Positions 1,141 to 1,614 of a stretch of DNA of 4,160 nucleotides are shown piece by piece. The stretch is from Escherichia coli. GTDB lineage: Bacteria; Pseudomonadota; Gammaproteobacteria; Enterobacterales; Enterobacteriaceae. Under the pieces are notes generated by a model that was given only the letters and a program-made list of their open reading frames with translations, did not search any database and was not told the DNA's origin. Both the position numbers and the translations under genes were made by a program. The DNA is taken from NCBI RefSeq assembly GCF_003334385.1, contig NZ_QOWN01000089.1; one strand, given 5' to 3'. Positions within the stretch are counted from its first letter, which is position 1, and every line of letters begins with the position of its first letter.

Positions 1141-1174
1141 AGGCCTCTACGAATTTTAGTAGAGGCTTTTTTTT
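1141..1174 (+). terminator. Rho-independent terminator downstream of element A
   Basis: 8-bp stem GCCTCTAC(1143-1150)/GTAGAGGC(1159-1166), 8-nt loop, followed by eight consecutive T (1167-1174). Confidence 0.75.
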
Positions 1175-1178
1175 GAGT

Positions 1179-1205
1179 AAAAAAAGCCCGTCTATGGCAG
1201 CGGGC
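1179..1205 (-). terminator. Possible minus-strand intrinsic terminator (convergent partner of 1141..1174)
   Basis: On the minus strand: hairpin GCCCG/CGGGC (5 bp, 10-nt loop) followed by a 7-nt U-run (complement of A-run 1179-1185). Weaker than its unit-B counterpart. Confidence 0.35.
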
Positions 1206-1403
1206 AAGTATGCATGAGAATACATTTTTTATTATTTGCCTGAAAATAGTACCCTGAGGTTATTGTTGTTTTCAACAGGCTGATTTGTGTTCTGATCGGG
1301 GATGTGACAAGGAACATACGTTCTTATGTGAAAATGTTAAATTCTTCACATTTCAGTGAGTTGAGTGTTGATTTCGTTTTATCTTTTTTGTTAAAAAAGT
1401 ATT

Positions 1404-1529
1404 GCATGGTGAATCCCCCTGTGCGGTGGGGCGACTGGTGACAACAATTCATCATCCGTGATGACCCAGAAGAGATCGCGGGTTCAGTGGCACCGGGCTG
1501 AACTCACCGGGAGGCACCCGGCACCATGT
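1404..1529 (+). ncRNA. Candidate structured RNA element, copy B (paralog of 1000..1113)
   Basis: P1 1404-1411/1522-1529 (GCATGGTG/CACCATGT; the outer pair is G-U); Pa CCCC(1416-1419)/GGGG(1428-1431); Pb CTGGTG(1435-1440)/CACCGG(1491-1496) with internal U-G wobble, apical TCATCA-TCCG-TGATGA hairpin (1449-1464, UCCG tetraloop); linker GCTGAACTCA; Pc CCGGG-AGGCA-CCCGG (1507-1521). Confidence 0.45.
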
Positions 1530-1555
1530 TCATGGTGATACAGAAATGCGGCTTC

Positions 1556-1580
1556 AGCCCCTCTCCGGAGGGGCTTTCTT
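1556..1580 (+). terminator. Rho-independent terminator downstream of element B
   Basis: 7-bp stem GCCCCTC(1557-1563)/GAGGGGC(1568-1574) with TCCG tetraloop, then T-rich tract TTTCTT. Confidence 0.55.
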
Positions 1581-1586
1581 ATGGAC

Positions 1587-1614
1587 AAAAAAGCCCGCGC
1601 TGGGAGACGCGGGC
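1587..1614 (-). terminator. Minus-strand intrinsic terminator (convergent partner of 1556..1580)
   Basis: On the minus strand: 7-bp stem GCCCGCG/CGCGGGC (1593-1599/1608-1614), 8-nt loop, followed by a 6-nt U-run (complement of A-run 1587-1592). Confidence 0.55.

Follow-up and report, generated by a model that had tools for sequence, protein, structure and literature searches.

Between the tRNA genes and the esterase gene of an Escherichia coli prophage, a + strand hairpin with a T-run is twice followed closely by an A-run and a second hairpin, and the question is what these paired elements are for. The initial annotation of the window (the whole 4,160-nucleotide stretch analysed here) had read them as bidirectional terminators that deliberately insulate short + strand transcripts from downstream and antisense transcription. 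Our analysis indicates that the hairpin pairs are very probably the ends of convergent small-RNA (sRNA) genes on opposite strands, forming two dyads side by side at a prophage moron site. Sequence, structure, homology and synteny are our own analysis; expression, Hfq binding and 3' ends are taken from the literature on homologues; promoter use in the source strain, the insulating role and Q read-through are what we infer.

The window is the stretch from the Q-like antiterminator to the lysis genes in a lambdoid E. coli prophage. The Q-like antiterminator gene is located about 1.1 kb upstream of the window (L001 3521-4081; PHROG 753, E = 1.7e-74), and holin and lysozyme genes occupy the downstream flank of the region. 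The order at the moron site is Q-like antiterminator, methylase gene, three tRNA genes, dyads, NanS-type esterase and lysis genes. This places the pairs at the moron site, with the Q/PR' region on one side and the lysis genes on the other, and Sakai Sp4 and Sp5 show a colinear region. The tRNA-to-esterase interval of the prophage is devoid of any RefSeq annotation.

A terminator scan and folding recovered all five hairpin/T-run elements of the initial annotation, and 5/5 have the sequence of an intrinsic terminator, a G+C-rich stem-loop followed by a U-rich tract. As predicted from sequence, the minus-strand hairpins are supported as intrinsic terminators for minus-strand transcription. Two + strand terminator-like hairpins, at 850-876 and 1683-1705, had been omitted. 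The elements are:

587-836: tRNA cluster of the ileZ-argN-argO type
850-876, + strand: terminator-like hairpin and T-run after the tRNA cluster (scan; folding -13.6 kcal/mol)
1141-1174, + strand: intrinsic terminator of STnc100 copy 1 (hairpin 1141-1168, 10-bp stem, T8 1167-1174; -16.5 kcal/mol, z -5.4)
1186-1205, minus strand: unit 1 hairpin (+ strand A7 1179-1185, U7 on the minus-strand RNA; -10.4 kcal/mol, z -2.7)
1556-1582, + strand: intrinsic terminator of STnc100 copy 2 (hairpin 1556-1575, 8-bp stem, then TTTCTTAT; -17.3 kcal/mol, z -2.7)
1593-1614, minus strand: unit 2 hairpin (8 bp, U6 1592 to 1587; -16.9 kcal/mol, z -4.0)
1683-1705, + strand: hairpin and T-run in the esterase leader (scan; homologous to the PasD2 terminator, PasD2 148-169)
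3804-3832, minus strand: unit 3 hairpin (8 bp, U7 3802 to 3796; -15.1 kcal/mol, z -3.0)

In L004, the sole divergent homologue, three stem pairs of the 1141-1174 terminator are altered on both sides. The 1556-1582 terminator is possibly weaker because its U-run is interrupted (UUUCUUAU), and its hairpin is common to most IMG/VR STnc100 units. The esterase-leader hairpin is conserved in Sp4, Sp5 and PP6.

Such elements are more numerous in the window than in shuffled sequences: a first scan counted 11 terminator-like sites against 4.6 +/- 2.2 in shuffles, and a second, custom scanner 15 against 5.0 +/- 2.2. With the custom scanner, 6 of 300 dinucleotide-shuffled versions of the window contained one or more tail-to-tail pairs, and none contained two or more. 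The stem-to-stem gaps of the two pairs are 17 and 17-19 nt (IMG/VR family range, 14-22 nt), and the facing U-runs of each pair end 3-10 nt apart, without overlap. "Bidirectional" is thus a misnomer: each pair consists of two unidirectional terminators set tail to tail. No single hairpin can work on both strands because its U-tract, seen as a T-run or an A-run, flanks it on a single side. The element at 3796-3832, which had been presented as a third case, is a genuine A-run and hairpin after the esterase gene, but it is a lone minus-strand terminator and half of no pair.

Each dyad would consist of two independent sRNA genes meeting tail to tail, every gene having its own predicted sigma-70 promoter and its own Rho-independent terminator. 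In dyad 1, an STnc100 sRNA on the + strand would face an AsxR/AgvB-like anti-sRNA on the minus strand; in dyad 2, another STnc100 sRNA would face an sRNA of the EcOnc08/21/42 type. A third minus-strand sRNA-like unit would finish directly after the esterase gene. The proposed genes and promoters are:

984-992, + strand: predicted extended -10 of STnc100 copy 1 (TGtTAAAAA; possible -35 TTGTTT 17 nt upstream; start near G1000)
1000-1176, + strand: STnc100 sRNA copy 1 (Rfam match 970-1178, 122.1 bits, E = 2e-27)
1179-1239, minus strand: unit 1, predicted 61-nt AsxR/AgvB-like anti-sRNA (profile homology; terminator 1186-1205, U7 1185-1179)
1246-1275, minus strand: predicted sigma-70 promoter of unit 1 (TTGAAA, 18 nt, TACTAT)
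1389-1397, + strand: predicted extended -10 of STnc100 copy 2 (TGtTAAAAA; -35 TTGATT 1368-1373; start near G1404)
1404-1582, + strand: STnc100 sRNA copy 2 (Rfam match 1374-1586, 147.2 bits, E = 7.4e-34)
1587-1767, minus strand: unit 2, Hfq-type sRNA, orthologue of EPEC E2348C_1409.E2348C_1408.IGR and Sakai EcOnc08/21/42 (5' end uncertain)
1661-1690, minus strand: predicted promoter of a short (~67 nt) unit 2 form (TTGCGC, 18 nt, TATTAT; read from sequence)
1786-1814, minus strand: predicted promoter of a long (~190 nt) unit 2 form (ATGTCA, 17 nt, GATAAT; overlaps the esterase start codon)
3796-3876, minus strand: unit 3, predicted ~80-nt sRNA (hairpin 3804-3832, U7 3802-3796; ends 6 nt after the esterase stop codon, 3788-3790)
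3883-3911, minus strand: predicted promoter of unit 3 (TTGACA, 17 nt, TTAAAA; weak -10, prediction only)

Both + strand units belong to STnc100 (RF02076; also named EcOnc27, sRNA103 and PasD-related), with 122.1 and 147.2 bits against a gathering score of 47. The two copies are about 66% identical (131 identical positions in 197 alignment columns), which rules out a recent tandem duplication, and copy 2 is orthologous to Sakai Sp4 EcOnc05. The TGtTAAAAA element is found at an equal distance before copy 1, copy 2 and the Sp5/Sp4 STnc100 genes, and the RNA-seq 5' end of PasD2 aligns with G1000 in copy 1 and with 1404-1420 in copy 2. STnc100 5' ends are uncertain: northern blots size the homologues at 222-247 nt, whereas the prediction for the window is about 178 nt. 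EcOnc27, EcOnc05 and PasD2 show up by northern blotting or RNA-seq as discrete RNAs associated with Hfq, and the sizes of PasD2, AsxR and the EcOnc RNAs fit 3' ends at the predicted terminators. The earlier proposal that the + strand hairpins end short discrete RNAs is thus borne out, both units being STnc100 and their homologues discrete. On alignment with Sakai Sp4, the extra dyad resembles an inserted module: it starts right after 850-876 and is absent from Sp4.

The minus-strand partner of the first dyad was matched at 1237-1179 with E = 5.6e-5 (nhmmer) by a profile of five AsxR/AgvB/EcOnc03-type RNAs, with pairwise z values of 5.6-7.3 against shuffles. The homology is to the ~42-nt conserved 3' domain of these short transcripts (51-62 nt; predicted 61 here). 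Unit 1 carries the conserved GUAUUCUCAUGCA box, and its 5' part, read from sequence, is A-rich with four ARN repeats (AAU AAU AAA AAA); such repeats have been reported for AgvB, AsxR and EcOnc03. Its covariance-model scores stay below the Rfam gathering scores for AsxR (RF02703; 20.7 versus 63 bits, E = 0.21 on 91 nt) and AgvB (RF02702; 15.9 versus 56), which rules out membership of either family; unit 1 is therefore classed as AsxR/AgvB-like. In L004 the promoter reads TTGAAA/TAATAT, with an identical -35, a -10 differing by one base and a different spacer, and the terminator stem of unit 1 is weakened. Comparative support for unit 1 comes from one divergent copy, L004: four IMG/VR contigs are identical to the window, and no further homologue was found in the INPHARED phage collection or among GTDB species representatives. 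Unit 1 is a previously undescribed AsxR-like variant, as predicted from its sequence. AsxR and AgvB are anti-sRNAs that sponge FnrS and GcvB, respectively. More tentatively, unit 1 may be a novel anti-sRNA directed at a novel target, and the T-run/A-run junctions may be joints for the exchange of sRNA cassettes between prophages.

Unit 2 is 93.9% identical to EPEC E2348C_1409.E2348C_1408.IGR over 181 nt (E = 1.7e-77) and near-identical to EcOnc08/21/42, with an identical terminator stem and an identical seed CCUUGCC (+ strand GGCAAGG, 1615-1621). In EPEC, the chimeric Hfq RIL-seq reads of the orthologue stop at the corresponding U-run (Pearl Mizrahi et al. 2021, PMC8550237), and its RIL-seq targets share GGCAAGG, the complement of the conserved seed. 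For EcOnc08/21/42, Hfq-CRAC shows peaks and northern blotting a band of about 271 nt. The length of unit 2 has three candidates, ~67, ~182 or ~271 nt. The short-form promoter has its -35 within the + strand leader hairpin; its hexamers persist in 17 EcOnc08/42-like variants, among them the divergent L122, and AsxR/AgvB units have TTGCGC and TAAAAT at this place. Estimated from RNA coverage, the 5' end in EPEC falls at window position 1767 in the alignment, and conservation of the long-form promoter is confounded by the esterase RBS.

Around unit 3, homology stops where the U-run ends. The stem and U-run are unchanged in 11 variants, barring one-base differences at their junction, and TTGACA, about 80 nt upstream of the terminator, is invariant in all 11. 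This sequence family occurs in 976 of 5,426 E. coli genomes. PasC and a minor PasA 3' end in EPEC, as well as EcOnc52 in Sakai Sp4, are on the same strand and at the same position. No experimentally supported sequence homologue of unit 3 was found among the published EcOnc/Pas RNAs, and the listed EcOnc peaks include none at the homologous site of Sp5. Identity with PasA or PasC was ruled out by the lack of any BLAST match or convincing alignment, and EcOnc11 and EcOnc12 are located elsewhere, after the lysis cassette.

The same layout exists in other prophages. Convergent sRNAs were described at the moron site of at least eight O157 prophages, Sakai Sp3, 4, 5, 9, 10, 11, 15 and 17 (Tree et al. 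2014, PMC4104026), and convergent pairs in the lambdoid prophages of O157:H7 Sakai are sited downstream of PR' (PMC4104026; review Sy and Tree 2021, PMC7873438). STnc100 abuts AsxR in Sp5 (3423-3628 on the + strand, 3630-3682 on the minus strand) and AgvB in Sp10 (1228-1420 and 1421-1482, respectively), and EcOnc05 (+) and EcOnc08/21 (-) of Sp4 are colinear with window 1334-1830. Homology and predicted promoters give the window the dyad organization of Tree et al., opposite-strand sRNA genes with their 3' ends facing. In IMG/VR, a convergent minus-strand terminator was found in 29 of 92 unique STnc100-core contexts, which are not phylogenetically independent; 12 of these terminators are AsxR/AgvB-like, 17 are EcOnc08/42-like and none belongs to another family. 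A tail-to-tail partner accompanies 26/87 terminators after STnc100 versus 41/1,297 others (odds ratio 13, again on phylogenetically non-independent sites).

Three other explanations were weighed against the reading of the pairs as ends of sRNA genes. Closest to the initial annotation, the minus-strand hairpins might be stand-alone, dedicated antisense insulators that form bidirectional blocks with the + strand terminators and have no gene of their own behind them. The hairpins are indeed real, unidirectional on each strand and tail to tail, and the layout would insulate anyway. However, behind each lies a minus-strand sRNA gene whose 3' end it forms and whose predicted promoter is 60-270 nt away; the sequence behind them is homologous to expressed, Hfq-bound sRNAs, and its promoter hexamers are kept in homologues. 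The IMG/VR contexts also argue against this explanation, which we regard as improbable: all 29 convergent terminators fall in two sRNA families rather than being assorted hairpins, and STnc100 units without a minus-strand sRNA are also without a minus-strand hairpin. Protein-coding genes behind the minus-strand hairpins were ruled out, the ORFs being of 20-68 aa only, crossing structured RNA and terminators, and none being credible. The copies differ in the ORFs that start at the ATG of the STnc100 closing stem.

Alternatively, the A-run/hairpin elements could act in the + strand late transcript, by stabilising or processing the Q-antiterminated mRNA or through pairing of U-run and A-run. The junction GGCTTTTTTTT-GAGT-AAAAAAAGCC is itself an inverted repeat, and the hairpins fold in the + sense too, at -11.1 and -15.4 kcal/mol, but folding on both strands is true of any hairpin. 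Only the minus-strand RNA has the oligo-U for termination and Hfq binding, homologues are detected as minus-strand RNAs, and conservation extends 60-180 nt to the + strand 3' side, in blocks with the minus-strand promoter hexamers. A role in the late transcript is thus very unlikely. That the elements are chance palindromes or recombination scars between phage modules, with no transcriptional role, has in its favour that homology between prophages often breaks exactly at T/A-runs, so that the junctions coincide with module boundaries. Yet none of the 300 shuffles yielded two pairs, the stems are conserved, with the + strand terminator altered on both sides of three pairs, and homologues have direct experimental support. 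We give this explanation hardly any credence.

As ends of sRNA genes, the hairpins would be working parts of the RNAs and more than stops, because a hairpin with a 3' oligo-U is the usual binding module for the proximal face of Hfq. Our analysis suggests that the minus-strand hairpins are probably the Hfq-binding modules of their sRNAs. Insulation of neighbours, which had been described as deliberate, is a reasonable consequence of the layout, but there is no sign of purpose. In a lysogen, RNA synthesis started at the constitutive sRNA and tRNA promoters of the + strand would stop short of the esterase and lysis genes, and minus-strand sRNA transcription would stop before running antisense into the upstream units. 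Antitermination had also been envisaged, and the Q-like gene upstream with holin and lysozyme genes downstream makes such a system plausible. RNA polymerase moving along the + strand does not see the minus-strand terminators; Q-modified polymerase would therefore, upon induction, need to pass only the + strand terminators. The lysis genes may thus be insulated while Q read-through is preserved.

The 5' domain of STnc100, a covarying closing stem with three to four hairpins, also occurs elsewhere without the 3' tail and terminator, directly before tRNA genes and SD+ORF morons, a qualitative observation. Some of these tail-less copies have a boxA-like TGCTCTT(T/A)CC just upstream. Automatic classing of the sequence after the STnc100 core over-called ORFs, owing to the closing-stem ATG, and was used qualitatively only. 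It is unlikely that the 5' domain is a cis-acting RNA module in its own right, and we judge the combined reading of unit 1 as a new anti-sRNA and of the junctions as cassette joints to be likelier. If the domain did alter the fate of RNA polymerase or of the transcript, the + strand dyad terminators would be conditional gates and not fixed stops, and the dyads would control, by a route that does not depend on Q, how transcription enters the esterase and lysis genes. The idea of a put-type antiterminator of the HK022 kind was set aside, since a search of the HK022 immunity/put region at E values as high as 5 gave nothing that resembles STnc100; putL/putR are two stem-loops of about 70 nt, whereas the STnc100 5' domain is a multi-hairpin junction of about 120 nt.

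The tail-to-tail arrangement is already published (Tree et al. 2014, PMC4104026); what is new here is the rare double dyad and the undescribed AsxR-like variant. Through prophage sRNAs of these families, core regulation is rewired in pathogenic E. coli. By opposing FnrS, AsxR influences the use of haem; by opposing GcvB, AgvB influences the uptake of amino acids. In EPEC, the RNA of the EcOnc08/42 type makes contact with cfa, dppA and tir, and EcOnc27/STnc100 variants were recently tied statistically to haemolytic uraemic syndrome. Reading hairpin pairs as sRNA gene ends makes unannotated sRNA genes callable from sequence alone. The reason behind the tail-to-tail layout was called unclear in a 2021 review (Sy and Tree, PMC7873438). 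We propose as a rationale that it could prevent expression of the lysis genes, or of antisense RNA, from the constitutive sRNA promoters, Q-dependent read-through still being possible.

The predicted arrangement can finally be set beside known systems. A bidirectional intrinsic terminator, reportedly as described by Ju, Li and Liu in Nat Microbiol in 2019, is a single hairpin between an A-tract and a U-tract. The window pairs are likewise predicted to stop transcription from both directions, within about 65 nt, but they use two hairpins, each with a one-sided U-tract and each also the 3' module of its own sRNA. Like PasA/PasC and EcOnc52, unit 3 is on the minus strand immediately behind the esterase stop codon and has a similar predicted size, about 80 nt, but it is a distinct sequence family without detected homology to them. 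Unit 1 is similar to AsxR and AgvB in length (61 versus 51-62 nt), orientation and position, and has the GUAU(U)CUCAUGC box, a UGCCCG...CGGGC-U7 terminator and an A-rich (ARN)n 5' region. It differs by a longer and different terminator loop, by a new variable 5' region and by a promoter lying outside any esterase-leader hairpin, in which the promoter of AsxR and AgvB is embedded. Unit 2 departs from EcOnc08/21/42 of Sakai Sp4 and Sp15, the equivalent of the EPEC PP6 RNA, by point differences only, and shares with it the seed, the terminator stem (one loop base differs) and synteny. The window dyads as a whole, like those of Sakai, come after Q and the ileZ-argN-argO tRNAs and before NanS-type esterase and lysis genes; in both, the + strand partner is an STnc100 RNA (EcOnc27, EcOnc05, EcOnc06), the minus-strand partner is of the AsxR, AgvB or EcOnc08/21/42 kind, and the terminators abut tail to tail. 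In other tandem STnc100 arrays of IMG/VR the first copy has no minus-strand partner, unlike in the window. The window differs from the Sakai prophages in having two tandem dyads that are not separated by stx or any other moron gene, a double dyad present in 6 of 5,426 complete E. coli genomes.

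The hairpins named in the initial annotation were present in a consensus scan of the window (+ strand, 1141-1168 and 1556-1575; minus strand, 1614-1593 and 3816-3804), together with extra + strand sites at 850-867 and 1683-1698. The scan counted 11 terminator-like sites, against 4.6 ± 2.2 in shuffled sequences. With our own scanner, 6 of 300 dinucleotide shuffles contained at least one tail-to-tail pair, and none contained two. The hairpins and the RNA units discussed below are as follows.

Terminator folds, sRNA units and a predicted promoter of the window
1136-1178, + strand: terminator fold, -16.5 kcal/mol, z -5.4
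1210-1176, minus strand: terminator fold, -10.4 kcal/mol, z -2.7
1550-1586, + strand: terminator fold, -17.3 kcal/mol, z -2.7
1620-1584, minus strand: terminator fold, -16.9 kcal/mol, z -4.0
3836-3793, minus strand: terminator fold, -15.1 kcal/mol, z -3.0
3796-3832, minus strand: third hairpin, 6 nt past the esterase stop codon
970-1178, + strand: STnc100 copy 1, Rfam RF02076, 122.1 bits (gathering score 47)
1374-1586, + strand: STnc100 copy 2, Rfam RF02076, 147.2 bits (gathering score 47)
1275-1246, minus strand: predicted sigma-70-like promoter of unit 1, TTGAAA, 18 nt, TACTAT, positioned for a 61-nt RNA

The U-tract is one-sided in every hairpin. Each pair, which had been described as bidirectional, is therefore composed of two unidirectional terminators. 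The pair 1 junction GGCTTTTTTTT-GAGT-AAAAAAAGCC (1164-1189), between both terminators, is a 10-bp inverted repeat whose U-run and A-run could pair in read-through RNA of either strand.

The window is 100% identical to several E. coli chromosomes. The gene order in S1-CAM-02-A is RusA, a DUF1133 protein, a hypothetical protein, a DNA methyltransferase and tRNA-Ile(CAT)/Arg/Arg, then about 970 nt without annotation, followed by a SASA-family (NanS-type) esterase, DUF1378, DUF826, holin, lysozyme and Rz. Of these, the DUF1133 protein matches PHROG 753 (E 1.7e-74) and is a Q-like antiterminator. The hairpin pairs thus belong to a lambdoid prophage's late operon and occupy the position of stx in Shiga-toxin phages; the order in prophage Sp5 of O157 Sakai is Q, tRNAs, stx2AB, intergenic region, esterase. 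Window 840-1807 (~970 nt), left unannotated by RefSeq (PGAP) in the identical chromosomes, is predicted to hold four sRNA genes, by homology or prediction. Some other records lay "hypothetical protein" genes over STnc100. The tRNA at 587-662 is called Met (anticodon CAT) by ARAGORN; its orthologue is tRNA-Ile (ileZ) in the RefSeq and Sakai annotations, a designation for a tRNA decoded as Ile once lysidine-modified. In Stx phages, stx is preceded by the same ileZ-argN-argO trio.

A known sRNA has its 3' end at the minus hairpin of pair 2. E2348C_1409.E2348C_1408.IGR, an EPEC RNA from Hfq RIL-seq that its authors equated with EcOnc08/21/42 (PMC8550237), matches window 1767-1587 (minus) with 93.9% identity over 181 nt (E 1.7e-77). 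Its RIL-seq fragments, including 767 chimeric fragments with the cfa 5'UTR, stop at NC_011601 1444795-1444800, a U-run that corresponds to window 1587-1592. The motif of its targets, GGCAAGG, is complementary to CCUUGCC, a sequence retained in the window at 1615-1621. In prophage Sp4 of Sakai, the Hfq-CRAC peaks EcOnc05 (+, ~222 nt) and EcOnc08/EcOnc21 (minus, ~271 nt) meet in exactly the same way as in the window.

Three options exist for the extent of this unit 2. A short form of ~67 nt is predicted from the promoter TTGCGC, 18 nt, TATTAT (1690-1661), both hexamers of which are retained in homologues, while EPEC coverage gives a possible estimate of ~182 nt. On Sakai northern blots, a probe for EcOnc08/21/42 placed upstream of the short-form promoter gives a signal of ~271 nt, so that Sakai has a long form, antisense to the esterase leader. 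The start of this long minus-strand RNA must lie close to or within the esterase start codon (1808). The RNA would cover the esterase ribosome-binding site in antisense, which raises the possibility that the NanS-type esterase is under antisense control (window 1661-1860). The esterase leader also carries a + strand hairpin with a T-run at 1683-1705, absent from the initial annotation and homologous to the EPEC PasD2 terminator. On the opposite strand, this hairpin includes the -35 hexamer (TTGCGC) of the predicted unit 2 promoter, an overlap likewise found for AsxR and AgvB, and its stem is 6 bp long in the EcOnc08-type context versus 8 bp elsewhere.

The minus hairpin of pair 1 occupies the place where AsxR (Sp5) or AgvB (Sp10) directly follows an STnc100 terminator on the other strand in Sakai. 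The corresponding unit 1 (1239-1179, minus) reads GCAAAUAAUAAAAAAUGUAUUCUCAUGCAUACUUGCCCGCUGCCAUAGACGGGCUUUUUUU. It has in common with AsxR, AgvB and EcOnc03-type RNAs a GUAU(U)CUCAUGC box and a UGCCCG...CGGGC-U(n) terminator. A profile of five family members matches 1237-1179(-) with E 5.6e-5, and pairwise scores against members lie 5.6-7.3 SD above shuffles. Both Rfam models, AsxR and AgvB, can be aligned to unit 1 over their full length, at 20.7 and 15.9 bits, far under their gathering thresholds, and we therefore call this putative sRNA AsxR/AgvB-like, a member of neither Rfam family. Unit 1 is rare: six full and four partial copies occur among 5,426 complete genomes and four identical contigs in IMG/VR; none was found in the phage collection or among GTDB representatives. 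The sole divergent homologue, in E. coli strain 550, is 83% identical: its promoter hexamers are TTGAAA and TAATAT with a different spacer, its minus stem is weakened, and the adjoining + terminator has three pairs altered on both sides. This strain's locus (NZ_CP058223 4302627-4307723) holds an array of at least four STnc100 units within 3 kb. An IS200/IS605 element with its STnc490 leader and a fragment of a group II intron break up the array, and remnants of IS630 and IS21 lie on its flanks.

At the site of the third hairpin, PasC, the minor 3' end of PasA and EcOnc52 (Sakai Sp4) end at the same place on the minus strand, but unit 3 belongs to a different sequence family, present in 976 of 5,426 genomes. 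Among 11 variants, the stem and U-run are constant save one-base differences at their junction, a TTGACA ~80 nt upstream of the hairpin is invariant, and homology to other prophages ceases at the U-run end. An sRNA gene of ~80 nt can reasonably be predicted here, although no experimental record of such an RNA was found. The site has no + strand terminator, as would fit late transcription that continues unbroken into the lysis genes.

The + strand partners are two copies of STnc100, a computational name for the Hfq-binding sRNA known as EcOnc27 in Sakai and sRNA103 in EDL933; PasD1 and PasD2 of EPEC are structural relatives. The terminal hairpin is part of the Rfam model. The copies are ~66% identical (131 identical positions over 197 alignment columns), and their closing stems differ on both sides (GCAUGAUG/CAUCAUGC versus GCAUGGUG/CACCAUGC). 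With so low an identity, they are not a recent duplication. Relative to Sakai Sp4, the window has an extra inserted module (~877-1333) that holds copy 1 and unit 1. An extended -10, TGtTAAAAA, lies 7 nt upstream of both G1000 and G1404, which align with the 5' end of PasD2 determined by RNA-seq; 5' ends at these positions are uncertain because the Sakai homologues are larger on northern blots (222-247 nt). A similar block, TTAAAT-N4-CACAWTTCAG-N6-8-TGA, precedes both promoters (936-972, 1334-1370) and is found in Sp4 and Sp5 too. It could be a regulatory site, or a repeat for recombination of tandem units.

The structured 5' domain of STnc100 (1000-1130, 1404-1530) is built from a closing stem plus three to four hairpins, terminating in CCGGG-AGGCA-CCCGG. 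This domain is a module of its own. On some IMG/VR contigs (loci L012, L017, L019, L020, L058 and L080) it lacks the 3' tail and terminator, and tRNA genes or a Shine-Dalgarno sequence with an ORF (a TerB-like gene or small membrane ORFs) come next, within 10-45 nt; in one such copy the Rfam match, at 50.3 bits, is confined to model positions 31-147. Covariation is seen in the closing stem (AUGGUG/CACCAU, GCGGUG/CACCGC, GUGGUG/CACCAC, GCAGUG/CACUGC). A boxA-like TGCTCTT(T/A)CC lies 4-5 nt upstream of it in eight unique terminator-less copies (loci L012, L017, L019, L058, L080 and L102; for example L058 4100-4130 and 4450-4470, minus) versus 0 of 37 sRNA-form copies. Three boxA-bearing domains alternate with tRNA genes at L058. 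No similarity was found between the domain and HK022 put.

With a 19-nt STnc100 core as query, carried by more than 120 IMG/VR contigs, a convergent minus-strand terminator was found in 29 of 92 unique downstream contexts, all 29 falling into two families (EcOnc08/42-like, 17; AsxR/AgvB-like, 12), the sequences being phylogenetically non-independent. The two stems are 14-22 nt apart. Of 87 terminators located after STnc100, 26 have a tail-to-tail partner, against 41 of 1,297 others (odds ratio 13, from phylogenetically non-independent counts). The + terminator types and minus units occur in varied pairings, and inter-prophage homology begins or ends at the ends of terminator T/A-runs (e.g. window 3796 and ~877). 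The sRNA units therefore behave as exchangeable cassettes with boundaries at terminator junctions.

These results contradict the readings of the minus hairpins as stand-alone insulators, of the hairpins as structures of + strand RNA, or as chance or scar palindromes: the counter-evidence comprises the homology of their flanks to expressed minus-strand sRNAs, the retained promoter hexamers and the shuffle controls. As ends of sRNA genes, hairpin and oligo-U would form the Hfq proximal-face module, as is established for Hfq-dependent sRNAs. Given the layout, the + terminators (850-876, 1141-1174, 1556-1582, 1683-1705) would shield the esterase and lysis genes in the lysogen from the constitutive tRNA and sRNA promoters; the minus terminators would halt sRNA transcription before an antisense run, and Q-modified polymerase would pass the + terminator set after induction.

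Our analysis is based on structure, homology, synteny, and promoter hexamers and stems compared with homologues, from which expression, Hfq binding and 3' ends are taken. Tree et al. 2014 (PMC4104026) reported that the moron site past PR' "carried convergent sRNA genes" in Sp3, 4, 5, 9, 10, 11, 15 and 17, and a 2021 review (PMC7873438) termed them "dyads", stating that the reason for the arrangement is unclear. The tail-to-tail arrangement was thus already published and is here rediscovered from sequence alone; new in the window are the tandem double dyad and an undescribed AsxR-like variant.
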